Notes: generated from the letters alone by a model not told the origin. DNA of 32,000 nt from Methylophaga frappieri (GCF_000260965.1 NC_017856.1:1650001-1682000), one strand, 5' to 3'. Shown: positions 11,859 to 27,768, counted from the first letter of the stretch. Translations and numbers: made by a program.

Positions 11859-12410
11859 ATGGCCAAAAGTAAAAATAATTTGATCTGGATTGATCTCGAA
11901 ATGACGGGTCTGGATACACAAAATGACAGCATCATCGAAATTGCCACTATCGTCACAGATGCCAACCTCAACATCCTTGCAGAAGGCCCTATCATTGCAA
12001 TTCACCAGTCTGGCAGCAAACTGGACGGCATGGATGAATGGAATACCCGGCAACATGGCAGTTCTGGTCTGACCGAACGGGTTCGCAGCAGTACCTATAC
12101 GGAAGCACAAGCAGAAGCCGAAACACTGGCATTTTTAAAACAATATGTCCCCGCCAATACCTCCCCGATGTGTGGCAACAGTATCTGTCAGGATCGCCGC
12201 TTTATGGCGCGCTGCATGCCAGAGCTGGAAGCCTTTTTTCATTACCGTAATCTTGATGTGAGCAGTCTTAAAGAACTCGCACGACGCTGGGCCCCCAAAG
12301 TCGAAAAAGCCTTTAAGAAAAAATCATCCCATCTTGCCATGGATGATATTAAAGACTCGATTCGTGAACTTCAGCATTACCGCGAATTTCTCATTAAGTT
12401 ACCCGAGTAA
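11859..12410 (+). CDS. orn: Oligoribonuclease
   Basis: [13 protein letters not shown] (DEDDh ExoI), [11 protein letters not shown] (ExoII) and [19 protein letters not shown] (ExoIII). Length 183 aa. SD GGAG upstream. Confidence 0.93.
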
Positions 12411-12490
12411 CCCCGCCAGAATACTATTCCATTCACGGCGTTTTCACACCGTAGAACTAACATTGCGCTTAAACAGAATATTTTTTGCTT

Positions 12491-12631
12491 ATGGCGCATT
12501 TAAAACCGCATCTTCCTGAAAAACAATGTCCCATTTGCCAACGCCCATTTTCCTGGCGAAAGAAATGGGCAAATTGTTGGCAAAGTGTCATTTATTGCAG
12601 TGAACGCTGTCGACGGCAGCGACATCTATAA
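12491..12631 (+). CDS. DUF2256-type small Cys-rich (zinc-ribbon-like) protein, 46 aa; too short to appear in the supplied ORF track
   Basis: My translation is [46 protein letters not shown]. The pattern CxxC-RPF-WRKKW-...-YCSERCRR matches my recollection of the DUF2256 (PF10013) signature. The stop TAA (12629-12631) overlaps the ATG of the next gene (TAATG). No obvious SD. Confidence 0.7.
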
Positions 12632-14094
12632 TGGCTTTGTCGAATGGCTTCCCGGAAAAAATGGTATTGCTGGATTGTGAAACAACGGGGGCACATGCAA
12701 ATCATCACCGTATCACTGAGCTTGCGCTCATCTTTGTTGAAAATGGCCGAATAACAGATCACTGGCAACAGCTTTTTAATCCGAAGCAAATTATCTCCGA
12801 CTGGATTACAAACCTGACTGGCATTAGCAACGAGATGGTGGCTGACCAGCCTGTTTTTGAGATGCTTGCAGAGACATTGTTTGAAAAGCTCTCTGGGTTT
12901 GTTTTGGTTGCCCACCATGCGCGTTTTGACTACCGTTTTTTATCCGCCGAATTTCGAAGAAGCGGTATTGATTTTACGTCGCCGACCTTGTGCTCAGTAA
13001 AGTTAAGCCGGGCGCTTTATCCTAATCAAAAAAAACATGGTATCGATGCTATCGTCTCTCGATTAGGTTTAACCATAGCGAATCGTCATCGTGCCATGGA
13101 CGACACTAAAGTGATTGTGTCTCTGTTTGAGCAGATAAGCCGTGATCACGATAGCGGAACTATTGCTGATGCTTGCCGACAGGTCATGCAATGCCCCCGT
13201 CTACCCAGTCAGTTGGATACAGCTGAAATCGACAAGTTGCCAAACAGTCCAGGCATATATGAGTTTTATGACGCGCAGGGCGGGCTGCTGTACATCGGTA
13301 AATCCGTCAATATTAAGCAACGTGTTCTTAGCCATTTTGCTGATACCAAAACAGCACGTCATCAAGAAATTCAGCAACAACTCGCACACATCAACTTCAT
13401 TACTACCCCATCTGATTTCGGCGCGCAGTTACTGGAAAATCAGTTAATTAAATCGAAAATACCGCGTTACAACCGACGTCAAACTAAAGCCAAAAAGTTA
13501 TTTCAATTTGCACTCCACAAAGATGCTCAAGGATATCAGCGCCTCAGGATCGAAATGGCTGATTTACAACAGCTTTCACAATTGTCAACGCGTTACGGCC
13601 TGTTTCGGAGTCAACGCCAAGCCAAGCAAAAATTGTTACAAATTGTGCAAGAACAACAGCTATGTCCGCAGTTAACTGGGCTCGAACCCACCCATAAAGG
13701 CACTTGCTTTAACTATCAATTAAAAAAATGTCGTGGTGCATGTCATGGCATCGAGTCCGCTAATCGTTACAACCTGCGTTTGAATATCGCGCTTTTAGGT
13801 CTTAAAAATCAGGCATGGCCCTGGTCAGGGCCTGTTATTGTGCGGGAGAAATCTGTCTCAGATGAGAGCATCGAAGTACATTATCACTTACTCGACCAAT
13901 GGCTGTATCTAGGGCGTGTAAAAGATGCGCATGAGGCTCAACACAAACTCGAAAGCGAGACCAACACGCCTCGTCATTTTGATTTGGATGCCTGCCGAAT
14001 TCAAATTCGCTTTTTGACTAAACTCCGTCCGGCAAACCTTGACGTTCTGACCTTGACGGCCTTTTCAGAATACGACAGCCAACCCTGGCATTAG
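12631..14094 (+). CDS. DEDDh 3'-5' exonuclease (DnaQ-like) fused to a GIY-YIG / UvrC-N-terminal (Cho-like) nuclease
   Basis: The N-terminal domain has ExoI LLDCETTG, ExoII LVAHHARFDYRFL and ExoIII HRAMDD. The middle region has GIY-YIG (PGIYEFYDAQGGLLYIGKSVNIKQRVLSHF, then E in LLENQL and N in PRYN). A UvrC/Cho-like Cys motif follows (CFNYQLKKCRGAC). Confidence 0.85.
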   Translation: MALSNGFPEKMVLLDCETTGAHANHHRITELALIFVENGRITDHWQQLFNPKQIISDWITNLTGISNEMVADQPVFEMLAETLFEKLSGFVLVAHHARFDYRFLSAEFRRSGIDFTSPTLCSVKLSRALYPNQKKHGIDAIVSRLGLTIANRHRAMDDTKVIVSLFEQISRDHDSGTIADACRQVMQCPRLPSQLDTAEIDKLPNSPGIYEFYDAQGGLLYIGKSVNIKQRVLSHFADTKTARHQEIQQQLAHINFITTPSDFGAQLLENQLIKSKIPRYNRRQTKAKKLFQFALHKDAQGYQRLRIEMADLQQLSQLSTRYGLFRSQRQAKQKLLQIVQEQQLCPQLTGLEPTHKGTCFNYQLKKCRGACHGIESANRYNLRLNIALLGLKNQAWPWSGPVIVREKSVSDESIEVHYHLLDQWLYLGRVKDAHEAQHKLESETNTPRHFDLDACRIQIRFLTKLRPANLDVLTLTAFSEYDSQPWH

Positions 14095-14100
14095 TACGTC

Positions 14101-15630
14101 ATGACATCACAAACGCTTTTACTGATACTCGGTGATCAATTAAACCGGAACAGCTTGATTTTTGAGGATGTCGATACAAAGACCTCACACTTCATGATGG
14201 CTGAAGTGCTGGATGAATCAAGTCGTTACCTCTCATCTAAACAACGAACCACCGTATTTCTCTCTGCCATGCGGCACTTTGCTGAAAACTGTCAAAAAGA
14301 CGATCTGCCCTTATTTTATTATTCTCTGGACAAACGGTTAGCAAGTTTCAGCGATGCACTAGACCACCATCTGAAAAATACTCCCTTCAAAACCATTCGT
14401 TGTGTTCTCGCCGGCGATTATCGTGTTGTTAAAGAAATTAATCATTGGACAAATCAACACGATATTTCCATCGAATGGTTACCAGACCAACATTTTATTG
14501 CGCGCCAAGGTGAGTTTAAAAGGTGGCTTTCTGAACGAAAGCAACCTCGCATGGAATATTGGTACCGCCAGCTTCGCAAAGAAAGAGCGATTTTGATGTC
14601 AGGCCAGTCACCAGTTGGTGGTCGCTGGAATTTTGATCAGGATAATCGTCACGCTTTTTCTCAAAAAGGGCCCGATGCTCTTGCGGAGACTCATCAATTC
14701 AAGCCCGATAAAATAACAAAAGACGTGATAAAGGCGATTCATCAATATTTACCGGATTTACCCGGAGACCTTGACGAATTCAATTGGCCGGTCACACTGA
14801 ATCAAGCCAAACAAACGCTGGATGATTTCATTTCACAACGACTTGCCAAGTTTGGTGATTATCAAGATGCGATGTGGCTGGATCAGCCTTTTTTATATCA
14901 CTCACGTTTATCCGTTGCCTTAAATCTCAAACTCCTCTCACCTGATGAGGTTATCGATGCTGCGATTCAAGCTTACGAGCGGAACGAAGCACCGCTCAAT
15001 GCGGTTGAAGGATTTGTCCGACAAATTCTCGGTTGGCGCGAATATGTCAGGGGATTGTACTGGACGCATAAACAAGACTGGCTGCAAATGAATGCACTCA
15101 ACGCTCGCCGCGAACTACCGCAGTTATATTGGGATGCAAAAACCGACATGACCTGTCTGAACCAAGCTGTCATGCAAGTGCTTACTTACGGTTATGGCCA
15201 TCATATACAAAGACTGATGGTTACGGGGCTGTTTTCACTCTTATGGGGCGTGAAACCCAAGGCAATACATGAATGGTATCTTGCCATGTATGTTGATGCC
15301 GTTGCTTGGGTTGAAGTACCCAATACTTTAGGTATGAGCCAATATGCGGATGGCGGTATCGTCGGCTCCAAGCCTTACATTGCGAGTGGCGCCTACATCA
15401 ACCGAATGTCGAATTATTGTCAGCATTGTCGTTTTGATCCAAAACAAGCGCATGGCGAAAAGGCCTGTCCGTTTACAACGTTATACTGGGCGTTTGTTGA
15501 TCGTCATCACGATCTGCTCAGTCAAAATCCAAGATTGGGCATGCAAGTCAAAAACTGGCAACGCAAGTCAAAATCTGAACAAAAAGCGATTCGTAAACAC
15601 GCTGAAAAACTGCATCGTCAACTACCCTAG
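14101..15630 (+). CDS. Fe-S bacterial cryptochrome/photolyase family protein (FeS-BCP; PhrB/CryB-type (6-4) photolyase)
   Basis: Collinear with Agrobacterium PhrB as I recall it, including LILGDQL, FLSAMRHFAE, MEYWYR, PVGGRWNFD, APLNAVEGFVRQILGWREY, GHHIQRLM and MSQYADGG. The four Fe-S ligand cysteines are present in context (MTCLNQ; YCQHCRFDP; KACPF). Confidence 0.88.
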   Translation: MTSQTLLLILGDQLNRNSLIFEDVDTKTSHFMMAEVLDESSRYLSSKQRTTVFLSAMRHFAENCQKDDLPLFYYSLDKRLASFSDALDHHLKNTPFKTIRCVLAGDYRVVKEINHWTNQHDISIEWLPDQHFIARQGEFKRWLSERKQPRMEYWYRQLRKERAILMSGQSPVGGRWNFDQDNRHAFSQKGPDALAETHQFKPDKITKDVIKAIHQYLPDLPGDLDEFNWPVTLNQAKQTLDDFISQRLAKFGDYQDAMWLDQPFLYHSRLSVALNLKLLSPDEVIDAAIQAYERNEAPLNAVEGFVRQILGWREYVRGLYWTHKQDWLQMNALNARRELPQLYWDAKTDMTCLNQAVMQVLTYGYGHHIQRLMVTGLFSLLWGVKPKAIHEWYLAMYVDAVAWVEVPNTLGMSQYADGGIVGSKPYIASGAYINRMSNYCQHCRFDPKQAHGEKACPFTTLYWAFVDRHHDLLSQNPRLGMQVKNWQRKSKSEQKAIRKHAEKLHRQLP

Positions 15631-15639
15631 AGAAGCCTT

Positions 15640-17037
15640 ATGACTAATAAACAAGCGGTTTGGTTACGCAATGATTTGCGGCTGGATGATCATCCAGCGT
15701 TAAGTGAAGCACAACAGCAAGGTCCCATTCATGTTGTCTTTGTCGCGACACCTGCACAATGGCGTCATCATAAAGAGTCACCGGCAAAATTAGGCCTGAA
15801 AGCAGCCGCCTTAAAAGATATTGCAGATAGGCTAGCCAAGCTGGGGATTCCCTTCACGATACTGGAAACTGACTGGTTTCAGGAAGTGCCGGCGCTGCTG
15901 AAAGCGTTTTGTTTAAAAGCGTCGATTCAAGCCTTGTGGTTTCAACCGGAAACCCCTTGGGATGAAACACAACGCGATGCTGCTGTTAGCGCATGTTTAG
16001 CTGATTCAGATATAGAGGTTCATGAGCTGGATTATGACTTGATTGTCGCCGCACCCGTCAAAACGCAACAAAATGAGCCCTTTAAAGTTTTCACACCTTA
16101 CTACCGTCGCTGGCTGCAAATTTTGGAAGACAGTCAATCCTCCCCTTACCCTGCCCTTCAGCCTCAAGGTGAAGCTTACCAGCCAGAGAAATGGCCATAT
16201 CAATGGGCGGGTGAATTTAGACACGATCTCTGGCCGGGCGATGAAGAAAATGCCTTATCACGCTTGTCGTTATTTGGTGAAATAAAGCTGCAAGATTATA
16301 AAAAGCAACGCGACATCCCGAACAAACCCGCAACCAGTTTATTATCACCCTACCTTAGCCTTGGTCAGCTTGGACCAAGAAGACTGTTAGCGACCGTACA
16401 ATTTTTTTGCGGTGAGCAGAACCGAGATTGGCGACATGATGATTGGTTGCGTGAACTCGCCTGGCGGGATTTTTATCGCCAATTACTTCTATATTTTCCT
16501 CAGCTAAGTAAGCATCAACCTTTCAAACCAGAAACACAATTTGTGCATTGGCGAGAGGATGCGGCCGGTTTTGACGCATGGTGCGAAGGCAAAACAGGCT
16601 TTCCAATCGTGGATGCAGCAATGCGCCAGCTAAATCAAACCGGTTGGATGCACAATCGATTGCGGATGATTAGTGCCAGTTTTCTCACTAAACTCTTATT
16701 AATTAACTGGCGGCAAGGTGAAGATTATTTCTTAGAAAATCTCATTGACGGTGATTACGCATCCAACAATGGCGGCTGGCAATGGAGTGCATCGACGGGC
16801 GTTGATGCCGCACCGTATTTTCGGGTTTTTAACCCGACGCTCCAGTCTGAACGCTATGACCCCGATGGCAAATTTATTAAACGCTTCGTGCCTGAGTTAG
16901 CCGAGATTCCAGCATCAAAAATTCATAATCCGCCGGATGCGCTGCGCTCCGAGTGCGGCTACCCCTTGCCTGTTATTGATTACAAATCAGCACGCCAACA
17001 AGCCATTGCCGCTTTTAAGGATTTACCAGAAAAGTAA
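15640..17037 (+). CDS. phr: Deoxyribodipyrimidine (CPD) photolyase, class I
   Basis: TGFPIVDAAMRQLNQTGWMHNRLRMISASFL...DGDYASNNGGWQWSASTGVDAAPYFRVFNP is nearly identical in pattern to E. coli Phr. Lies 9 nt after the upstream stop. Confidence 0.93.
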   Translation: MTNKQAVWLRNDLRLDDHPALSEAQQQGPIHVVFVATPAQWRHHKESPAKLGLKAAALKDIADRLAKLGIPFTILETDWFQEVPALLKAFCLKASIQALWFQPETPWDETQRDAAVSACLADSDIEVHELDYDLIVAAPVKTQQNEPFKVFTPYYRRWLQILEDSQSSPYPALQPQGEAYQPEKWPYQWAGEFRHDLWPGDEENALSRLSLFGEIKLQDYKKQRDIPNKPATSLLSPYLSLGQLGPRRLLATVQFFCGEQNRDWRHDDWLRELAWRDFYRQLLLYFPQLSKHQPFKPETQFVHWREDAAGFDAWCEGKTGFPIVDAAMRQLNQTGWMHNRLRMISASFLTKLLLINWRQGEDYFLENLIDGDYASNNGGWQWSASTGVDAAPYFRVFNPTLQSERYDPDGKFIKRFVPELAEIPASKIHNPPDALRSECGYPLPVIDYKSARQQAIAAFKDLPEK

Positions 17038-17055
17038 ACCGCTTCCCTGCGGTTT
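17036..17055. terminator. Shared hairpin between convergent phr and fldA
   Basis: AAACCGC (17036-17042) / GCGGTTT (17049-17055) with loop TTCCCT. It overlaps the phr stop codon. The stem is short and AT-flanked. Confidence 0.5.
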
Positions 17056-17063
17056 GTAGCGTG

Positions 17064-17573
17064 TTAACCAAATAAGTGGGGCTTGATTTGCTCACACCAC
17101 TGATTAACGCGTTGTTCAGTTAATTCCGGTTGGCAGTCTTCGTCCAGTGCCAGACCAACAAAAGATTTTTTGTCTTCAGTCAGCGCCTTGGAAGCTTCAA
17201 ACTCATAACCCTCTACCGGCCAGTGGCCGATAACGGTGGCACCTTTGGCAATCACTTTGTCATGCAACATACCCATGGCATCTTGAAACCATTCTGCATA
17301 AGCAAATTGATCGCCCATTCCCACGAAAGCAACTGTTTTGTTGGTAAAATCGGTTTCATCGATTTCATCCCAGACATCTTGCCAATCCGTTTGAACTTCG
17401 CCGTAATCCCATGTTGGCAAAGCAAAAATCAGCTTATCGAAATACTCCAGCGCCGCTAGTCCAGCGTCTTTTACATCGAATAATTCGGTATTATCTTCCC
17501 CGAAGAAAGCCTGAATTTTAGCGACTGCATCTTCTGTATTGCCAGTCGTTGATCCATAGACAATTGCAACCAT
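17064..17573 (-). CDS. fldA: Long-chain flavodoxin
   Basis: IVYGSTTGNTE FMN phosphate-binding loop, WDYGE.Q.DW, 169 aa. SD AGGTGGA upstream. Confidence 0.92.
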   Translation of the reverse strand: MVAIVYGSTTGNTEDAVAKIQAFFGEDNTELFDVKDAGLAALEYFDKLIFALPTWDYGEVQTDWQDVWDEIDETDFTNKTVAFVGMGDQFAYAEWFQDAMGMLHDKVIAKGATVIGHWPVEGYEFEASKALTEDKKSFVGLALDEDCQPELTEQRVNQWCEQIKPHLFG

Positions 17574-17603
17574 AGTCCACCTGATAACGTGATTAATTTG
17601 GGT

Positions 17604-17622
17604 GAAAATGATAATTATTAGT
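17604..17622. promoter_or_regulatory. Fur box overlapping the fldA promoter
   Basis: GAAAATGATAATTATTAGT matches the 19-bp consensus GATAATGATAATCATTATC at 15 of 19 positions. It covers the -10 element and the spacer of the predicted promoter. Confidence 0.7.
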
Positions 17623-17636
17623 ATCTAATAAATCAA
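17608..17636 (-). promoter_or_regulatory. Sigma70-type promoter of fldA
   Basis: On the minus strand, TTGATT (17636-17631), a 17-nt spacer, then TATCAT (17613-17608), about 35 nt upstream of the start codon. Confidence 0.6.
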
Positions 17637-17742
17637 CAGAAAAGTCGCTTTCTACAGCAAGTCTGTGACTGAAATTCAATTTAAACCACTCAGCCATGCC
17701 GTTTTCAACCAGCGATCTGCCCTCAAATTTCGTTACCGATTT

Positions 17743-18180
17743 TTATTTGCAGCTGATCTGAAACCCATTCTCAACCCGCTTATAGTCAAACTGTTTGTCT
17801 GAGTTCTGCTTTTGATAATGCAGGTTTTCTCCGTCCAAACTTAAATCGATATAGACGGTTTGGGTATTTTCTGGCGCAGCTTGTTTGCCATTCATATTTT
17901 CCAACGTGTGCATGGTGTCAATTAATTTATCATCCTGAATTTGCCAGGCACCCAGTTCTTTCTGAACCCAAGATAAATCGTCGCCATTACACACTAAAAA
18001 CAGGGCAGCATATTTATTGTCATCCATCCGCCGCATCAACCATTTCATGGTTTCACCATCTGCCTCACGCTCGTTGTACCAAGTGCCAATCAAATCCTGA
18101 CTGCTAGGCGCAGCTTGGACAGATGTTGAGAAAGCAAAGCCAATCAGTAAAGATGAAAGGATGTAACGAAAATTAAACAT
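17743..18180 (-). CDS. Small secreted protein, lipocalin-like (uncharacterised)
   Basis: I prefer the ATG at 18180 (SD GAGG 5 nt upstream) over the upstream start at 18210. The signal peptide MFNFRYILSSLLIGFAFSTSVQA-AP is followed by LIGTWY, a motif common at the start of lipocalin-like domains. Two Cys residues could form a disulfide. Confidence 0.6.
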   Translation of the reverse strand: MFNFRYILSSLLIGFAFSTSVQAAPSSQDLIGTWYNEREADGETMKWLMRRMDDNKYAALFLVCNGDDLSWVQKELGAWQIQDDKLIDTMHTLENMNGKQAAPENTQTVYIDLSLDGENLHYQKQNSDKQFDYKRVENGFQISCK

Positions 18181-18305
18181 AATAACCTCAGCGTTGATGG
18201 TTTCTAACAATAGACTTGATTTAAGCTGTCTGGTGATTGATTGGCTTCTAAATCAAAAAGAAGTTCCACCCTATGCTTAATTCACCTGCCCTACAAGCGC
18301 TTAAT

Positions 18306-18328
18306 CTCAAAATCAGGAAAACTTCCTG
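18306..18328 (-). terminator. Possible terminator downstream of phoX
   Basis: On the minus strand, CAGGAA-GTT-TTCCTG (plus-strand coordinates 18314-18328) is followed by ATTTTGAG. The stem is short. Confidence 0.4.
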
Positions 18329-18405
18329 TTTCAAACACGAAGCTTCTGCTCATGAAAGTTGTTTAGTCTGAGACAACAAACTATCAGATTGCCGGCAGCC
18401 GTTAT

Positions 18406-20295
18406 TCAGGTGCCAATAATGCCGCCATCTTTTTTCGTGATTAACACCGTTGCGGAACGTGGCCGGCCCTCGGGATGATGATCAGGCCAGTTACTGACGG
18501 CTCTGGGAGTTTCCGGAGATGTTTTCAGGCCCTGATTTTTTAACAATGACAAGGTTTCACCAGGATGTTGAATATTGACCCACATGGTTTTCATATCCGG
18601 CGTCATGGCGACACCGGTGACTTCGCAGCCCACAGGTCCCGTTAAAAATCGTCGAATTTCGCCAGTTGTGGGATCTGCTGCCAGCATCTGGTTATTACCG
18701 AAGCGTTTGAATTTTCCTTGATTTAAGGCACTTGAGCTCACATCCGTCTGAATCCAGAGTACACCACGCTCATCAACGTAAAGTCCATCTGGGCAGGCAA
18801 ATATCTCCCCTTTACTATCGCTCTCACCCGCCAAAACAAACACCTGCCACTGCCCAGCCAAAGCCGTCGCGTCTGTCTCACGAAGTTTGAGAATGTGACC
18901 AAAATGATTCTGGTTGCGTGGGTTCGCCCCGTCTTTATCAGGTTGCGCGTCAACACCGCGCTGATTATTGTTGGTCAATGACACAAATACGTCGCCAGAA
19001 TGGGGATGGACCGTGATCCACTCCGGTCGGTCCATCTTGGTCGCTCCTAAGATGTCAGCCGCTGTGCGGGCATGCACTAACACATCCGCCTGATCTTGAA
19101 AGCCATTATCCGGCGTTAACCCCAACTCGCCAAAAATTAATGGCAACCATTGCATTTGACCATTGTCATCAAACCGGGCAACGGTTAACACGCCCTCATC
19201 GAGCAAATGACCATTTTCCACCCCTTGGCTACCATCCCACGCTTCGCGAGTCACAAACTTGTAAATATATTCAAACTGAGCATCATCACCAGAATAGAAG
19301 GCAACCCGTCCATCTCTGCCAACTTTATGCGCCACATTCTCGTGGCAAAATCGACCAAGTGCCGTCCGTTTGATCGGAATATGCTCCGGATCGTAAGGAT
19401 CGAACTCAACAACCCAGCCAAACCGGTTCGCTTCATTGGGGACTTTGTCCAGATCAAACCGCTTATCAAATTGATGCCAGCCGTAGTAGCTAAACCCCAA
19501 ATCATAGCGTTGCCAGCGGCGCTCTATTCGGGGCGCTTTCTCAATCATCTTGTTTCGAACAAAGTAGTATTGAAAGTTTTCCTCACAAGCAAGATAAGTA
19601 CCCCAGGGTGTTTTACCATTAGCACAATTATTTAATGTACCAAGAACCACTCTGCCATCCGGGTCATCAATCGTTCTGACTAATTCATGGCCTGCAACAG
19701 GACCACTTAAATGCATCGGTGTGTTTGCGGTCAAACGTCGCGCATAAGCCGATGGCCGAACAATCTGCCAATCATGGTTCTTTTTTTTGACCTCTATCAG
19801 TGACACACCATGAGCATGCTGCTCTTTTATCATTTTTTCTGAAGAGTAAGGTGTCGCGTGAATATGACTACCGTCAATGTGAATCAAATCCAGATCCAGA
19901 TATTCGTGGTTCATGACCAATAGGCCATGATCACTATTCGTCGACCCTTTCGGTAAAGGAAAATATTGCACGGCATCATGATGCATACCGGCCTGAAGCA
20001 ACTGCTCCGCCGCTGTATTGCTTGCATCCTGATTAAACTCCGGCCCCGCTGACACTGGATCGCCCCAGCGATAAATCACCTCAGCCTGATACCCCGAAGG
20101 CACTTGAATATCATCTCTCAAATCGGCGCTGGCTACGGCTGCAAATCCTAACAAACGGGTCTTAGCTTGGTGCCATGTCGCCGCTCGAACCGAGACAGGC
20201 ATCGCTGCGGCAAGGAGACCGCCTAGTCCATATTGCAATACTTTGCGTCGCCGAACTTGCTTATCTAATAGCGATGAAAAGAGATTCGGTGGCAT
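18406..20295 (-). CDS. phoX: PhoX-family alkaline phosphatase (DUF839), Tat-exported
   Basis: Twin-arginine signal (VRRRKVLQYGLGGLLAAAMPVSVRA-A), about 630 aa, and a beta-propeller-type sequence with PhoX-like segments (WGTYLACEENF, RFGWVVE, DRPEWI and NWPDHHPEGRPRSATV at the C-terminus). Confidence 0.85.
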   Translation of the reverse strand: MPPNLFSSLLDKQVRRRKVLQYGLGGLLAAAMPVSVRAATWHQAKTRLLGFAAVASADLRDDIQVPSGYQAEVIYRWGDPVSAGPEFNQDASNTAAEQLLQAGMHHDAVQYFPLPKGSTNSDHGLLVMNHEYLDLDLIHIDGSHIHATPYSSEKMIKEQHAHGVSLIEVKKKNHDWQIVRPSAYARRLTANTPMHLSGPVAGHELVRTIDDPDGRVVLGTLNNCANGKTPWGTYLACEENFQYYFVRNKMIEKAPRIERRWQRYDLGFSYYGWHQFDKRFDLDKVPNEANRFGWVVEFDPYDPEHIPIKRTALGRFCHENVAHKVGRDGRVAFYSGDDAQFEYIYKFVTREAWDGSQGVENGHLLDEGVLTVARFDDNGQMQWLPLIFGELGLTPDNGFQDQADVLVHARTAADILGATKMDRPEWITVHPHSGDVFVSLTNNNQRGVDAQPDKDGANPRNQNHFGHILKLRETDATALAGQWQVFVLAGESDSKGEIFACPDGLYVDERGVLWIQTDVSSSALNQGKFKRFGNNQMLAADPTTGEIRRFLTGPVGCEVTGVAMTPDMKTMWVNIQHPGETLSLLKNQGLKTSPETPRAVSNWPDHHPEGRPRSATVLITKKDGGIIGT

Positions 20296-20364
20296 ACCCG
20301 TTTTCCCTAAATTAACTTCTATGGGTGATCAAAACAAAAAGCTTAACCGTTTTACGATGCGATT

Positions 20365-21435
20365 TTATGACATTAATTGACGCTTTAACGCCCATTCGAT
20401 GTGTTCTGCAACCATCTCATTGACAATGGGAAGCCTGGCTCGCAAAGCTTGCTGTATCGGCTGACTTGGACGTGCATTACCGAGAGCAACAGCCAAGTTT
20501 CTCTGCCAGCAATCATATCCAATACGACGAATGGGGCTACCTTCCAGTTTTTGATAAAACTCAGTCTCTGACCAAGCAAACAAGTCCAATAATTGAGGAG
20601 CATCCAGATTTTCTCTTGGCTGAAAACTACTCTCCATACTGGGTTGTGCAAATTTGTTCCATGGACAAACCAGTTGGCAATCATCACAGCCGTATATCCG
20701 ATTACCAATTAACGGCCGTAAAGACTCCGGAATTGCTCCCCTCAACTCAATAGTCAAGTATGAAATACAACGACGCGCGTCTAATTGATACGGCGCAACG
20801 ATAGCCTGCGTAGGACAAATATCGATACAGGCTGAACATTTGCCGCAATGTGCCGAAACAGATTTCGTCAACGGCAGCGGCATATCTGTATAAATTTCAC
20901 CTAAGAAAAAGTACGACCCATGTTGCCGATTCAATATATTCGTATGCTTACCCATCCAACCAAGGCCTGACTTTTCGGCCAGCGCCTTTTCCATGACCGG
21001 TGCACTATCGCAAAAAACCCGATATCCCATTTTCCCCAATAGTGCTTCCAAACTATTTGATAGACGAAGTAACCGCTTACGCATAAGTTTGTGATAATCC
21101 CGTCCTAAGGCATACCGGGAAACAAAGCCTTTTTGGTCATCGGCGATAACTGGCCATGGCGCTGCCGTACTCTCAGGCCAATAATCCATTCGCGCCGTGA
21201 TAACTCGCACAGTATCGGGCAATAAAACGTCAGGACGGCTGCGCTTAACCCCATGGCGTTCCATAAAATGCATTTCGCCATGAAAGCCTCGCGCCAGCCA
21301 ATCTTGAAGCTGATTTTCAGCCTCTGTTAAATTGATATCACTCACACCAATCTGTTGAAATCCACATTGTCGAGCAAGAGATTGCATCTCTTCAATTACT
21401 GCCTCAGCAGACTGTGTTGTATTAATTTGGATCAT
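20365..21435 (-). CDS. queG: tRNA epoxyqueuosine(34) reductase QueG
   Basis: Two 4Fe-4S ferredoxin motifs (CGKCSACIDICPT; CDDCQLVCPWN), a cobalamin-domain N-terminal half, and a divergent position next to nnr as in E. coli. Confidence 0.9.
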   Translation of the reverse strand: MIQINTTQSAEAVIEEMQSLARQCGFQQIGVSDINLTEAENQLQDWLARGFHGEMHFMERHGVKRSRPDVLLPDTVRVITARMDYWPESTAAPWPVIADDQKGFVSRYALGRDYHKLMRKRLLRLSNSLEALLGKMGYRVFCDSAPVMEKALAEKSGLGWMGKHTNILNRQHGSYFFLGEIYTDMPLPLTKSVSAHCGKCSACIDICPTQAIVAPYQLDARRCISYLTIELRGAIPESLRPLIGNRIYGCDDCQLVCPWNKFAQPSMESSFQPRENLDAPQLLDLFAWSETEFYQKLEGSPIRRIGYDCWQRNLAVALGNARPSQPIQQALRARLPIVNEMVAEHIEWALKRQLMS

Positions 21436-24977: not shown

Positions 24978-26627
24978 ATGGTCAATAAACCGCTCAACAT
25001 ACCGCGTATTCATGCCCTGCCACTGCAGTTAGCAAACCAGATTGCCGCGGGCGAAGTGATCGAGCGTCCGGCTTCCGTTGTTAAAGAGTTGGTTGAAAAC
25101 AGTCTGGATGCTGGCGCAACGCAATTAAATATTCGAATCGAAGGCAGTGGCAGTCAACTGATTCATGTCCGGGATAATGGTGCAGGCATTCACCCGGAAG
25201 ATTTGCCGCTGGCATTAACGCGACATGCCACCAGCAAATTAAGTAGCAGTGACCAACTGAGCCAGATAGGCAGTCTCGGATTTCGCGGTGAAGCTTTGCC
25301 CAGTATCAGCTCTGTGGCCAAACTGACACTTATTTCAAGGCAAGCGGACAGCGATTGTGCGTGGCAATTAATACCGTCAGAAAATACCTTAAAACCCACC
25401 GCTCACCCCTTAGGTACCACCGTTGAAGTGCGGGACTTATTCTTCAACCTGCCTGCAAGGCGTCGTTTTTTACGCAGTGCGCGAACTGAACAACAACACA
25501 TTTTAACCACACTGCAACGATTGGCATTAAGTCGCTTAGATATCGCCCTAGATTGTCAGCTTAATGGCCAACAAAAAATGGTTCTACCTGCTGCGGATAG
25601 TGACAGTAAACAATTGCAGCGGTTACGCAAAATCTGTGGTAGCCGCTTTGTAAAGGATGCTTTTGTTATCGAACAACAGCGCGATTTAATGCAGCTCAAT
25701 GGCTGGATTTGCCCAGCAATTGCACACCGAGCCCACAATGATATTCAGTATTTTTTTATTAACGGGCGCGTGATTCGTGATCGATTGATAAGTCATGCTG
25801 TACGCCAAGCTTTTGCGGAACAAATTCCAGCAGGAAGACATCCAGCTTATGTACTGTATTTGACATTGCCTTTGGACCGGGTGGATGTCAACGTCCATCC
25901 AACGAAACACGAAGTACGCTTTAGAGAGGCACGGCTTATCCATGGGCTTATCACCAGTGCAATTCGCGATGCTTTGCGCCAGACGATGCCAAAATCAACC
26001 TCAACAACCGTTCCGCAACATACCAGTCATTACGACAACCAACCGGTATCTGTCCGAGAATCTGCAGCCGATTACCATCAGCTTGCTATTCCTGCTCAAC
26101 CAGCATCGCACTCATTACAAATTATCGCTGAGAAATTTGTCGTAATACATTATCAGCAACAACATTGGCTAATTGATCTGATCAAGCTTGAGACAGAATT
26201 GACGTATCAGAAGTGGTGCCAAGCCATCGCGCAAAACCAACTCAGCCACCGCCCGGTCATGGTGCCCGTCAGTTTTCATATTGACGCTGCTCAAGCCGAA
26301 TTATTCCTTGCTTATCAAGACAGACTGGAAAAGCTTGGTGTGCATATAGAGATTGAAAACAAGCAGCTTCGAATCCTTGCCTTTCCAACGCTCTTTGGCG
26401 CCATTGATCTACAGAATTTGTTTGATCAACTGGTCAACATTCTCGCTAACACACCTGATCAAGATATGTTGTCGAACGCCCTGTTTTTATGTCGCCATGT
26501 GCCGCGCCAATTTACCGCTACTGATGCACAATCTTTGCTGGAATCCTGTCAAAACCTATCCTGGCAAACGGTTGCATGGGCAAAGCAACTTGATAAAGCC
26601 TTGCTTACTAGCTTATTCTCCGAGTGA
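24978..26627 (+). CDS. mutL: DNA mismatch repair protein MutL
   Basis: GHKL ATPase N-terminus (ANQIAAGEVIERPASVVKELVENSLDAGAT, VRDNGAGI, GFRGEAL, VNVHPTKHEVRF). 549 aa. I saw no DQHA(X)2E(X)4E endonuclease motif in the C-terminal domain. Confidence 0.92.
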   Translation: MVNKPLNIPRIHALPLQLANQIAAGEVIERPASVVKELVENSLDAGATQLNIRIEGSGSQLIHVRDNGAGIHPEDLPLALTRHATSKLSSSDQLSQIGSLGFRGEALPSISSVAKLTLISRQADSDCAWQLIPSENTLKPTAHPLGTTVEVRDLFFNLPARRRFLRSARTEQQHILTTLQRLALSRLDIALDCQLNGQQKMVLPAADSDSKQLQRLRKICGSRFVKDAFVIEQQRDLMQLNGWICPAIAHRAHNDIQYFFINGRVIRDRLISHAVRQAFAEQIPAGRHPAYVLYLTLPLDRVDVNVHPTKHEVRFREARLIHGLITSAIRDALRQTMPKSTSTTVPQHTSHYDNQPVSVRESAADYHQLAIPAQPASHSLQIIAEKFVVIHYQQQHWLIDLIKLETELTYQKWCQAIAQNQLSHRPVMVPVSFHIDAAQAELFLAYQDRLEKLGVHIEIENKQLRILAFPTLFGAIDLQNLFDQLVNILANTPDQDMLSNALFLCRHVPRQFTATDAQSLLESCQNLSWQTVAWAKQLDKALLTSLFSE

Positions 26628-26652
26628 AATCAAGCGATTCGAGGCGTTAGCT

Positions 26653-27768
26653 ATGGAAAAGTTTTCCCGCACCCGTTCTTTATGGCTGGCATTTTTGCTG
26701 GCAATAATTGTGCTGGGGGTGTTTGGCTATTTGTTATTTACCGATGGCGAACATTTTAAAAAACAGGAAATCGTTGATCCGCCCATCGAACTCGCTGAAC
26801 CAGAGCTGCCGCTGGAGATCATCGAAGTGGATGACAGCCTGCCGGCTCAAGAAGAAATTCGTGAAAATGAAGCAGAGATTTTTGTTGAAAACCTGGCAGC
26901 GGAACCAACGGAAGCGGTTCGTTTAACCGAGGGCGAAGATCAATTTGTCCGGTCAGATAGTGTTATTGCGCTACCTTCTCTGGAAGAGCGTGTGACCACG
27001 CTTGAAAAACTACTCGATGATGAAGCCCTTGCGGATGATACGCCCGTATCAGTTTTTTTCACCGAAGAAACGCGTGAAGAAACGACTATTCAAAAGATGG
27101 TCGAGAGTAAAGAAGATCACATCGCACCAGTGACCATCGAAACCGAATCCGGCGAAACCATTACAGCACCATTATCGGAGCTGGTTAAACGCGACGACAT
27201 AGACAAAAACCAACCAGTCACCGAGGTACGTCAGGAAAAGAAGCAAATTCAGACCACCGTCGCCGAATTGGCCAAATCTGATATTGCCCCCCAGCAGGAA
27301 GTAACGGTTGTCATCAATCATGGCAACAAAGAAATTGCACTCGAAGAGCTGCTCGCGGGCGAACCAATAGAGAAAGACAGTCTGCTCTATCTGCACCGGG
27401 TAACCGAGGCAGATTATCAGGGTTTATGGGGCATTATTCAGTCAGGTCTCATTAACAAATTTCGTCGCGGTATGCGTCTGGAAGGTATGGGGCCGCAATC
27501 GACCTTAAGTGTTACCATCCCCGCAGATGCCGATGAACCGCTACCGGATGGACTGAGTTCTTTCCTAGGTAAAATCCTCAATCAAAAAGTCACCAGCAGT
27601 TATGTTTATAACTTCAGAACCGAAGCCATGGGGCGTAACCCTAATCTGATATTCCCAGGCCAGCAACTGATTATGATTGAGTTTGAGGCAGATGAAATAC
27701 GTGATATCTACCTCTACTTTGCTGAGCACCGTGCAGAAGAGGTCAAAACATTTGCCATCAGCAACTGA
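26653..27768 (+). CDS. Membrane-anchored, highly acidic protein with a LysM-like C-terminal region (uncharacterised)
   Basis: ATG at 26653 with GAGG 8 nt upstream. The longer ORF-track start at 26353 overlaps mutL in another frame and is rejected. One N-terminal TM segment (LWLAFLLAIIVLGVFGYLLF) is followed by a ~230-aa D/E-rich linker. The C-terminal segments HRVTEADYQGLWGII and NPNLIFPGQQLIMI resemble the two ends of a LysM fold, separated by a long insert. Confidence 0.6.
   Translation: MEKFSRTRSLWLAFLLAIIVLGVFGYLLFTDGEHFKKQEIVDPPIELAEPELPLEIIEVDDSLPAQEEIRENEAEIFVENLAAEPTEAVRLTEGEDQFVRSDSVIALPSLEERVTTLEKLLDDEALADDTPVSVFFTEETREETTIQKMVESKEDHIAPVTIETESGETITAPLSELVKRDDIDKNQPVTEVRQEKKQIQTTVAELAKSDIAPQQEVTVVINHGNKEIALEELLAGEPIEKDSLLYLHRVTEADYQGLWGIIQSGLINKFRRGMRLEGMGPQSTLSVTIPADADEPLPDGLSSFLGKILNQKVTSSYVYNFRTEAMGRNPNLIFPGQQLIMIEFEADEIRDIYLYFAEHRAEEVKTFAISN

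Follow-up and report, generated by a model that had tools for sequence, protein, structure and literature searches.

The gene for the micro-protein DUF2256 and a photolyase/cryptochrome gene form a widespread pair, a pairing of which no description was found in the literature, and in the genus Methylophaga this pair is the conserved core of a larger cluster, in which an exonuclease-Cho fusion (Exo-Cho) looks like a genus-specific insertion between DUF2256 and the photolyase. The cluster was analysed in a 32,000-nucleotide stretch of Methylophaga frappieri DNA (NC_017856.1:1650001-1682000, hereafter the window), which gave a 100% identical protein match. Gene neighbourhood across phyla strongly backs a partnership of DUF2256 with photolyases, and this neighbourhood gives a widespread protein of the DUF type a concrete and testable context, namely UV/light DNA-damage repair.

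Gene neighbourhood of DUF2256

Two scans were made, centred on DUF2256 and on Exo-Cho, each taking 80 loci which are the best matches and not random samples. A photolyase/cryptochrome-family gene was located within 300 nt of DUF2256 in 33 of the 80 metagenomic loci, nearly always on the same strand, and in 30 of the 71 loci of the dereplicated set, against a chance expectation of about 0.3. Among the DUF2256 loci of at least 8 kb, a photolyase-family ORF occurred within 5 kb in 20 out of 37. Photolyase families led the list of neighbours by a wide margin, with 28 and 20 loci, and no other real gene family exceeded 7 loci; two neighbour clusters of 11 loci each look like antisense ORFs of photolyase-family genes or DUF2256 itself. 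The neighbours comprise Fe-S and Cry-DASH classes, a divergent cryptochrome/photolyase family (CPF) group, and others. The literature search did not find a paper tying DUF2256 to photolyases.

In four look-ups, the organisms with DUF2256-photolyase neighbours belonged to the Proteobacteria and Bacteroidota. DUF2256 overlaps a gene for an Fe-S bacterial cryptochrome/photolyase (FeS-BCP; DPRP family, PF04244) by 1 nt in Aeromonas and a photolyase gene by 4 nt in Marinobacter, while in Vibrio an SDR-DPRP-phr operon lies 60 nt from it and in Flavobacterium the gene order is phr-DUF2071-DUF2256-DPRP-phr. Thus, with the gene at or near a photolyase gene, Aeromonas, Vibrio and Flavobacterium offer tractable organisms for its study. 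In roughly half of the DUF2256 loci a photolyase is lacking within 5 kb, examples being a cyanobacterium, Spirosoma, Variovorax and Novispirillum. Moreover, the link to FeS-BCP is not obligatory, since DUF2256 was not found near the FeS-BCP genes of three Exo-Cho-centred loci (L011, L024 and L051).

An initial annotation of the window had proposed a functional partnership of DUF2256 and Exo-Cho with photolyases, and had called for neighbourhood statistics of PF10013 against the photolyase and GIY-YIG families. The proposal is borne out only in part: the statistics come out in favour of the photolyases, with the counts given above, but not of Exo-Cho, near which DUF2256 was present in none of the 75 non-Methylophaga loci (among the best 80 Exo-Cho loci, Methylophaga included).

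The four genes and their products

The four same-strand ORFs were confirmed (Table 1), all genes, coordinates, strand and spacings of the initial annotation being recovered, and its gene identities proved correct by domain matches and alignments to solved structures. DUF2256 and Exo-Cho overlap by 1 nt at a TAATG junction, Exo-Cho is followed after 6 nt by FeS-BCP, and FeS-BCP after 9 nt by the CPD photolyase.

Table 1. Features of the cluster and its flanks, in window positions
Feature	Position	Strand	Length	Match or remark
orn (oligoribonuclease)	11859..12410	+		NF003765, E 4e-89, above cutoff
Direct repeat TTCACGGCGTTTTCAC (TTCAC-N6-TTCAC, 11-bp period)	12432..12447	+		Candidate regulator-binding site
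DUF2256 micro-protein (ORF1)	12491..12631	+	46 aa	PF10013
Exo-Cho, DEDDh exonuclease/GIY-YIG fusion (ORF2)	12631..14094	+	487 aa	RNase_T + GIY-YIG
FeS-BCP, PhrB/CryB-type (6-4) photolyase (ORF3)	14101..15630	+	509 aa	PF04244
Class I CPD photolyase, E. coli Phr type (ORF4)	15640..17037	+	465 aa	PF00875 + PF03441
G+C-rich hairpin	17036..17055	.		Between convergent CPD photolyase and flavodoxin genes

ORF1 matches PF10013 with E 5e-21 (75 bits, gathering cutoff 25), and homologues share its ATG start at 12491 (MAHLKPHLP). The protein is a basic zinc ribbon, C-x2-C-x19-C-S-x2-C, of the TRASH clan, with a pI of about 10 (10 K+R against 2 D+E), and 13 of its residues are invariant in 37 diverse homologues, including the four zinc-ligand cysteines C13, C16, C36 and C40. 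Within Methylophaga it is under purifying selection (pN/pS 0.06-0.36 at pS 0.6-1.0), and the family reaches 2479 clusters at 50% identity; the invariant residues, the pN/pS values and the number of clusters establish DUF2256 as a genuine protein. No fusion to a photolyase occurred among the top 150 of the 2479 family representatives. The AF2 model has a pLDDT of 80 and its nearest folds in Foldseek are MYND, HIT and YacG, none of them significant. DUF2256 falls outside YacG (PF03884), since it scores 13.1 bits where the cutoff is 25.5 (E 0.08) and has a Foldseek E of 2.4, the resemblance being at clan level only. In hhalign the two families align with 61% probability over a common zinc-ribbon signature, C-P-x-C...[FY]-C-S-x-R-C, and the gyrase-bound YacG (4TMA) has the top query-normalised TM-score (0.49) among the Foldseek matches; the fold/profile resemblance is weak. 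YacG differs in loop length by 4 residues, in having no counterpart of the invariant RPFSWRKKW motif, and in its C-terminal tail, which contacts GyrB and is missing from the 46-aa DUF2256. Pfam places DUF2256 in the TRASH clan along with YacG/DUF329 (PMC4047054), where MYND, HIT and zf-FCS are further zinc fingers, and the sORFdb paper lists it among the most frequent DUFs in bacterial proteins of 50 aa or less.

ORF2 contains RNase_T (E 1e-32) and GIY-YIG (PF01541, E 2e-8) domains: a DEDDh 3'-5' exonuclease resembling DnaQ/PolC forms the N-terminus and is followed by a UvrC-like GIY-YIG nuclease, a C4 region and a C-terminal domain of the Cho type. Residues D15, E17, D100, H153 and D158 of the exonuclease, G208, Y210, Y221, G223, R231, E269 and N281 of GIY-YIG, and the cysteines C345, C359, C367 and C371 are invariant in 20 homologues. 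PDB matches are 2p1j (E 3e-22) and the UvrC N-terminal domain 1yd6 (E 1e-12), and Foldseek, with an AF2 model of pLDDT 86, ranks the DinG, PolC and epsilon exonuclease domains at the top. The E. coli Cho model NF007833 aligns over its positions 26-277 of 289 with residues 198-463 (E 2e-61); as an equivalog of that protein, which lacks the exonuclease domain and whose gene is LexA-controlled, Exo-Cho was rejected, the whole-protein score of 208 being below the cutoff of 367. The UvrC C-terminal domains (UvrB-binding/EndoV/HhH module) were not detected by domain search. The intact DEDDh site, the GIY-YIG core (Y, Y, R, E, N), the four-Cys region and the Cho-type C-terminus are the layout of the 'Cho+Exo' subfamily, with its ExoIII/epsilon-like exonuclease, described by Dunin-Horkawicz et al. 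in 2006 (PMC1564403), from which mycobacterial Rv2191-type 'Cho-like+Exo' proteins differ by a UvrB-binding domain in place of the Cho C-terminal domain. That paper knew 18 members in a few Betaproteobacteria, and the count now stands at no fewer than 596 genome loci and 2955 proteins, the family being large in Gamma- and Betaproteobacteria. A biochemical study of Cho+Exo was not found in the literature, and the architecture itself has been classified since 2006.

ORF3 covers positions 2-224 of 224 of the DPRP domain PF04244 (E 7e-67) and gives full-length matches to 4DJA, 5KCM, 3ZXS and 7YKN (E 1e-112 to 1e-138), aligning end to end with Agrobacterium tumefaciens PhrB (4DJA, E 4e-138, residues 5-506) and over its full length with Rhodobacter sphaeroides CryB (3ZXS, E 6e-128). 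The catalytic HH motif and the four [4Fe-4S] cysteines are kept in the PhrB alignment ('...mtClnq...'/'...mnCmak...' and 'yCqhCrf...gekaCpf'/'yCdtCry...gdnaCpf', that is, C...C-x2-C-x12-C). The DPRP domain, the full-length match and the four cysteines are the sequence marks of FeS-BCP/CryPro. The gene of this predicted (6-4) photolyase shares a probable operon with Exo-Cho and DUF2256. ORF4, with DNA_photolyase (PF00875) and FAD_binding_7 (PF03441) domains, has E. coli photolyase (1DNP) as its closest solved relative (E 1e-108, residues 6-460), the class III, plant cryptochrome and DASH entries scoring well below it, and shares with it the FAD-binding domain and the aligned Trp positions, which we take to be the Trp triad. 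The class rests on this alignment, since the protein falls just short of the NF007955 equivalog cutoff (488.2 bits against 506); its operon context also differs from that of E. coli Phr. A paper on photolyase operons counts only two prior reports. The photolyase operons compared likewise have photolyase genes co-transcribed with repair or unknown genes, in overlapping or nearly overlapping cistrons, and differ in that none includes DUF2256 or a Cho-family nuclease.

Transcription and history of the cluster

The layout exceeds chance and its order is kept across the genus. The order orn-DUF2256-ExoCho-DUF3429-FeSBCP-phr was present in all five of the other Methylophaga loci retrieved, orn is immediately 5' of DUF2256 on the same strand in the six genomes, and the stop of DUF2256 overlaps the start of Exo-Cho (ATGA or TAATG) in the six species. 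M. frappieri has no DUF3429, and its tight four-gene packing is in part a recent deletion, because the sister species carry DUF3429 as a fifth gene between Exo-Cho and the Fe-S photolyase. Outside Methylophaga, Exo-Cho is normally a stand-alone gene. A general co-localisation of the four genes as a module is not borne out, since all 75 non-Methylophaga Exo-Cho loci are devoid of DUF2256 nearby and a photolyase-family gene is abutted in only 4 of them. These 4, apparently of different lineages, have a P of about 2e-5 to 2e-4 under a chance model of 0.2-0.4%, so that a weak independent association exists, and together with the Methylophaga operon they provide independent genomic support for a role of Cho+Exo on UV lesions.

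The four genes likely constitute a single transcription unit, as first annotated, in view of the tiny gaps, the genus-wide order, the conserved start-stop overlap and the terminator-like scan, which noted no site at the gene junctions. The same scan noted none in the 80-nt gap between orn and DUF2256, its total count being at chance level, and no sigma-70-like promoter was found in that spacer; orn may be co-transcribed with the cluster. When the orn-DUF2256 spacers of the six Methylophaga genomes are aligned, no intergenic columns but those of TTCAC-N6-TTCAC are invariant. The motif occurs once in the window and, in 1.85 Mb of fetched loci, stands upstream of DUF2256 in 5/5 Methylophaga loci and appears elsewhere only 3 times. 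This direct repeat is a candidate binding site for a regulator of the cluster. In addition, the absence of an upstream LexA box, already remarked upon in the annotation, extends to the whole window for the exact CTGT-N8-ACAG, with 1-mismatch sites at chance level and none upstream of the cluster. Such a box is absent upstream of Exo-Cho in 79 of the 80 loci, the single exception sitting inside the gene; the pattern suggests that Cho+Exo in these bacteria lies outside classical LexA-box control. The transcription unit probably ends at the hairpin at 17036..17055, which the terminator-like scan called on the - strand and whose + strand T-run is weak.

Proposed function and competing readings

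We hold it to be rather probable that Methylophaga possesses a genus-conserved UV-damage repair operon, with a DUF2256-photolyase core and an inserted Exo-Cho, which works in the following way. In the ancestor of the genus, Exo-Cho and the gene for the DUF3429 membrane protein would have come to separate DUF2256 from the Fe-S (6-4) photolyase, DUF3429 being lost later in M. frappieri. Transcription would start in the orn-DUF2256 spacer through a non-LexA regulator acting on TTCAC-N6-TTCAC, some read-through from orn being possible, and would yield one mRNA with four cistrons, with DUF2256 and Exo-Cho translationally coupled by the overlapping stop and start. In the light, judging from homology to characterised enzymes, 6-4 photoproducts and cyclobutane dimers would be reversed by the two photolyases. 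In the dark, the GIY-YIG domain of Exo-Cho might cut 3' of the lesion, and its DEDDh domain then resect 3'-to-5' through it, in line with the earlier proposal of an incise-then-resect mechanism for Cho+Exo, with UvrAB-dependent 3' incision and 3'-5' resection (PMC1564403). Neighbourhood and sequence features would make of DUF2256 a folded, basic, Zn-binding accessory factor, whose target, common to all photolyase classes, would most likely be DNA with UV damage or distortion, or else the photolyases. A bolder version, in our opinion improbable as a whole, is that DUF2256 might be a general partner, hitherto overlooked, of several classes of prokaryotic photolyases and cryptochromes, a 45-55-aa zinc ribbon binding UV-distorted DNA or the photolyase and needed in vivo for efficient photoreactivation or the hand-over of unrepairable lesions, in Methylophaga also being coupled, translationally and perhaps physically, to Exo-Cho as a compact non-SOS incise-and-resect dark pathway. 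Should DUF2256 turn out to serve photolyases as a cofactor, these enzymes could no longer be presented, as textbooks do, as self-sufficient repair systems made of a single protein.

Other roles can be imagined for the small protein. The clan shared with YacG (PMC4047054), the hhalign and Pfam scores and the fit to 4TMA would agree with a zinc-finger plug modulating gyrase, topoisomerase or a UvrB-type repair protein, which would pause DNA transactions during photoproduct repair; this is very unlikely, as the similarities all fall short of statistical significance at database level, the YacG tail and a YacG counterpart of RPFSWRKKW are lacking, and the neighbouring genes give no hint of topoisomerases. 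Just as hard to credit is a small DNA-binding transcription factor autoregulating photolyase operons, in spite of DUF2256 often being the first cistron of the cluster and a very basic protein with a zinc ribbon: 81 diverse loci have no shared motif upstream of DUF2256 (k-mer counts at shuffle level), the TTCAC repeat is absent upstream of it in other taxa, and the nearest fold relatives MYND, HIT and YacG are protein-binding zinc fingers. A sequence-specific autoregulator fits poorly with DUF2256 being nearly invariant across phyla and its recognition surface having no conserved operator.

Regarding the operon as a whole, it could have no promoter of its own and be expressed constitutively within a five-gene operon that is read through from orn, hence not a UV- or light-regulated module. 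We find this doubtful: the position of orn in 6/6 species and a spacer with neither terminator-like hairpin nor sigma-70-like promoter speak for it, but orn does not precede DUF2256-photolyase clusters outside Methylophaga, and the one element that the spacers conserve is the direct repeat, whose 11-bp period is the usual one for activator sites, and not a signal for transcript processing. A neutral juxtaposition would also be conceivable, in which Exo-Cho functions independently of DUF2256 and the two photolyases, a chance rearrangement in the Methylophaga ancestor having placed a housekeeping nuclease in the cluster and co-transcription being mechanistically meaningless. In about 92% of the other lineages sampled, Exo-Cho shows no linkage to photolyases, so its presence in the Methylophaga cluster could be neutral; besides, it stands alone with only lineage-specific neighbours in the 75 other loci, the full arrangement is limited to one genus, and the cluster content is fluid (DUF3429 present or absent). 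Even so, this reading seems to us unlikely, given that Exo-Cho sits exactly between DUF2256 and its usual partner, that the DUF2256/Exo-Cho overlap has been kept in six species saturated at synonymous sites, that adjacency to photolyase genes in four other apparently independent lineages is above chance, and that UV and bulky lesions are substrates of Cho-family enzymes (PMC1564403).

DUF2256 and its photolyase neighbours

The transferable finding of this analysis is the neighbourhood formed by DUF2256 (PF10013, COG4338) and photolyase genes. Photolyase operons are known and sparsely described (PMC9649867), a 2025 survey counts DUF2256 as one of the commonest domains without a known function in proteins of up to 50 aa, and no paper tying DUF2256, PF10013 or COG4338 to photolyases was found in the literature searched. 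When metagenomes were scanned with an alignment of DUF2256, 80 loci were obtained, which represent the best 80 matches and not a random sample. In 33 of them a photolyase/cryptochrome-family ORF lay within 300 nt of DUF2256, nearly always on the same strand, and 20 of the 37 metagenomic loci of at least 8 kb carried a photolyase-family ORF within 5 kb. After dereplication the count was 30/71, against approximately 0.3 expected from a rough chance model whose photolyase density was taken from the loci of Exo-Cho, a DEDDh exonuclease fused to a Cho-like GIY-YIG nuclease. By far the commonest neighbours in the metagenomic loci were photolyase families (28 and 20 loci), with no other real gene family exceeding 7; two neighbour clusters of 11 loci each look like antisense ORFs of photolyase genes, or DUF2256 itself. 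All neighbourhood sampling started from DUF2256 and Exo-Cho genes only.

The enzymes adjoining DUF2256 span several classes, including Fe-S photolyases, Cry-DASH proteins (of 10 neighbours sampled, 4 passed the cutoff of TIGR02765) and one divergent group whose members have some 520 aa. A frequent neighbour group of the photolyase/cryptochrome family, with members of some 500-550 aa (loci L104, L112, L088 and L135), stayed below every NCBIfam photolyase or cryptochrome cutoff, with best scores of about 150-180 bits.

DUF2256 was also looked up gene by gene in eight cases from different taxa. In Aeromonas it shares 1 nt with the gene for the Fe-S photolyase, and in Flavobacterium it lies inside a phr-DUF2071-DUF2256-FeSBCP-phr cluster (phr, photolyase gene; FeSBCP, Fe-S photolyase). 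The Marinobacter gene has a 4-nt overlap with a gene of the photolyase family, and an Fe-S photolyase is two genes away. In Vibrio a convergent operon, SDR-FeSBCP-phr, stands at a distance of 60 nt. No photolyase was found within 6 kb of DUF2256 in a cyanobacterium, Spirosoma, Variovorax and Novispirillum, and in two of these four a short-chain dehydrogenase (SDR) gene adjoins it. Such an adh_short gene recurs beside DUF2256 (L089:5259-6159, L090:6001-6893, L083:6001-6916), even without an adjacent photolyase, as in Spirosoma and Variovorax; in Vibrio, the SDR is the last gene of the phr-FeSBCP-SDR operon and faces DUF2256. It may be part of the same light/UV gene network.

From these neighbourhood counts, the conserved core is DUF2256 plus photolyase, and in Methylophaga Exo-Cho and a DUF3429 gene sit between the two.

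The Methylophaga cluster and the Exo-Cho family

The coordinates and junctions of the four genes in the initial annotation proved exact when compared with the ORF listing and the junction sequences, the junctions being, in order, a 1-nt overlap (TAATG) and gaps of 6 and 9 nt. The 487-aa product of ORF2 matches an M. frappieri protein with 100% identity, which places the window on the chromosome of that species. In ORF3, the alignment to 4DJA showed the HH motif and all four cluster cysteines to be conserved, and ORF4 scored 488 bits against an NCBIfam cutoff of 506. Judged by their sequences, the two photolyases fit known families and are not unusual within them.

Genes of the photolyase cluster and associated features (window positions unless a locus is named)
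Feature	Position	Strand	Description
ORF1, DUF2256	12491-12631	+	46 aa; PF10013, E 5e-21
ORF2, Exo-Cho	12631-14094	+	487 aa; RNase_T/DnaQ-type DEDDh exonuclease (E 1e-32) plus GIY-YIG domain
ORF3, PhrB/CryB-type Fe-S (6-4) photolyase	14101-15630	+	509 aa; full-length alignment to 4DJA, E 4e-138
ORF4, E. coli-type class I CPD photolyase	15640-17037	+	465 aa; alignment to 1DNP, E 1e-108
Shared hairpin	17036-17055		between ORF4 and the convergent downstream FldB-like flavodoxin gene
DUF3429 gene	L001:9449-9850 and equivalent stretches of L002-L005		PF11911 match; missing in the window, where the gap is 6 nt

The architecture of ORF2 is that of the Cho+Exo subfamily, which was defined in 2006 with the 18 members then known, and for which an incise-then-resect mechanism had been proposed in earlier work (summarised in PMC1564403). 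The E. coli Cho model is spanned nearly whole (positions 26-277 of 289, E 2e-61), with a score below the equivalog cutoff, and 20 homologues show no variation at the DEDDh residues, at the catalytic residues of GIY-YIG or at four cysteines. The closest solved structures were the exonuclease domains of PolC and epsilon and UvrC's N-terminal domain; the search with the full-length model matched the exonuclease domain only and did not inform the fold of the Cho C-terminal domain. An origin of the exonuclease domain as a recent duplicate of the adjoining orn (oligoribonuclease) gene was rejected, since the two show no similarity. The family is evidently now large in Gamma- and Betaproteobacteria: a scan with an alignment query and one genome per species returned at least 596 loci; those kept, with 8-kb flanks, were the 80 best matches, again not a random sample.

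Among these best 80 loci, the order orn-DUF2256-ExoCho-FeSBCP-CPD photolyase was present in all five from other Methylophaga (L001-L005), where Exo-Cho and the Fe-S photolyase are separated by one more gene, some 135 codons long, for a DUF3429 membrane protein (PF11911, E 4e-19). Since the other five loci carry this gene, the 6-nt junction of M. frappieri is a derived deletion. In 6/6 Methylophaga species the stop codon of DUF2256 and the start codon of Exo-Cho overlap (ATGA or TAATG), and the DUF2256 core shows a pN/pS of 0.06-0.36 at near-saturated synonymous divergence.

The initial annotation had suggested a functional partnership of all four genes, and their co-localisation was found only within Methylophaga; a widely conserved four-gene module is therefore ruled out for the best 80 Exo-Cho loci. 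In neighbourhood terms, the pairing of DUF2256 with photolyases stood, whereas that with the GIY-YIG partner did not, as none of the 75 non-Methylophaga Exo-Cho loci had DUF2256 within 8 kb. A seeming second adjacency of Exo-Cho and DUF2256, L145, was rejected, its upstream ORF being the C-terminus of an ordinary dnaQ. Only 6 of the 75 held a photolyase-family ORF within 8 kb, and the three Fe-S photolyase genes among these loci all lacked DUF2256. Immediate adjacency of Exo-Cho and a photolyase ORF was seen in four (L018, L020, L024, L051), exceeding the 0.2-0.4% of a rough chance model (P about 2e-5 to 2e-4), which indicates a weak, recurrent association and not a conserved module. Clustering the neighbours of the 80 loci gave lineage-specific genes only, with no shared partner genes pointing to a pathway.

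The DUF2256 protein and the proposed working of the cluster

DUF2256 is a very basic protein (pI about 10) in which 13 of some 46 residues (K11, C13, C16, R18, F20, W22, R23, K25, W26, W30, C36, S37 and C40) are invariant in 37 diverse homologues, among them named Proteobacteria, Bacteroidota and Cyanobacteria, with the pattern C-x2[11 protein letters not shown]3-W-...-Y-C-S-E-R-C. The AlphaFold model (pLDDT 80) predicts a small fold that resembles a zinc ribbon and has a helix at the C-terminus. A Foldseek search of the PDB returned no match with E < 0.6, the top, non-significant resemblances being MYND, HIT and YacG zinc fingers, and the PDB sequence-profile search gave marginal C2H2 and L24 matches only.

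An exhaustive profile search collected 2479 DUF2256 clusters at 50% identity. The best 150 representatives were nearly all stand-alone proteins of 50-126 aa and included no Rosetta-stone fusion with a photolyase; the top match, of 3179 aa, was discarded as a C2H2-repeat false positive. One homologue from this family search, P0290 (126 aa), carries an N-terminal extension that is rich in Ala and looks like the transit peptide of an algal organelle, which suggests that the family also occurs in photosynthetic eukaryotes.

In the proposed working of the cluster, a single mRNA would probably begin in the orn-DUF2256 spacer and be controlled by a regulator other than LexA, with read-through from orn being possible; it would encode all four proteins. 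In the light, the two photolyases would reverse 6-4 photoproducts and CPDs, activities expected from their close homology to characterised enzymes. As a putative dark route, following the proposal summarised in PMC1564403, the GIY-YIG domain of Exo-Cho would nick 3' of the lesion, and resection through the damage, 3'-to-5', would fall to the fused DEDDh exonuclease. DUF2256 would be translationally coupled to the next gene, Exo-Cho in this window and, in Aeromonas and Marinobacter, a photolyase gene.

Since DUF2256 adjoins several photolyase classes, it is suggested to recognise a feature that all of them share; a first guess is DNA distorted by UV, or else the fold of the photolyase. It is less likely that DUF2256 acts on another DNA enzyme in the manner of YacG. 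Pfam places DUF2256 in the TRASH clan alongside YacG, MYND, HIT, zf-FCS and L24e (PMC4047054), and hhalign gave a 61% probability against E. coli YacG (sequence entered by hand), yet the structural resemblance to YacG was not significant. No k-mer was enriched upstream of DUF2256 genes in 81 loci, which rules out a universal operator and argues against a sequence-specific autoregulator.

Candidate control region and chromosomal surroundings

The orn gene lies 80 nt upstream of DUF2256 on the same strand, and the only invariant block of this spacer in six Methylophaga species is a direct repeat, TTCAC-N6-TTCAC (11-bp period, 12432-12447). It occurs at this spacer in 6/6 species and three other times in the 1.85 Mb of fetched DNA, and is considered a candidate regulator-binding site. 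Neither a sigma-70-like promoter nor a terminator-like hairpin was found in the spacer. The absence of a LexA box upstream of the cluster, as initially reported, was borne out, there being no exact box anywhere in the window; a canonical box was likewise absent upstream of Exo-Cho in 79 of the 80 loci.

The downstream flavodoxin gene was ruled out as a module member, as it is not kept beside the cluster in other Methylophaga. The rest of the window, of unremarkable GC content, holds common chromosomal genes (ftsK, lolA, rarA, a thioredoxin-reductase-like gene, usp, a GGDEF protein, an M48 protease, phoX, queG, nnr, tsaE, an amidase and mutL). In 11859-21435, the photolyase cluster, the flavodoxin gene, an orphan ORF and PhoX are flanked by orn on one side and by queG-nnr-tsaE-amidase-mutL on the other, with no deviation in GC. 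Because orn and the latter group are close neighbours in E. coli, the stretch between orn and queG may be an insertion site. The orphan ORF (17743-18210, - strand, 155 aa), between the flavodoxin and PhoX genes, matched no Pfam family, and its N-terminus is hydrophobic and resembles a signal peptide. Directly after mutL, and overlapping its 3' end as listed, a 471-aa ORF without a Pfam match at E 0.01 (26353-27768, + strand) occupies the place that miaA takes behind mutL in E. coli.
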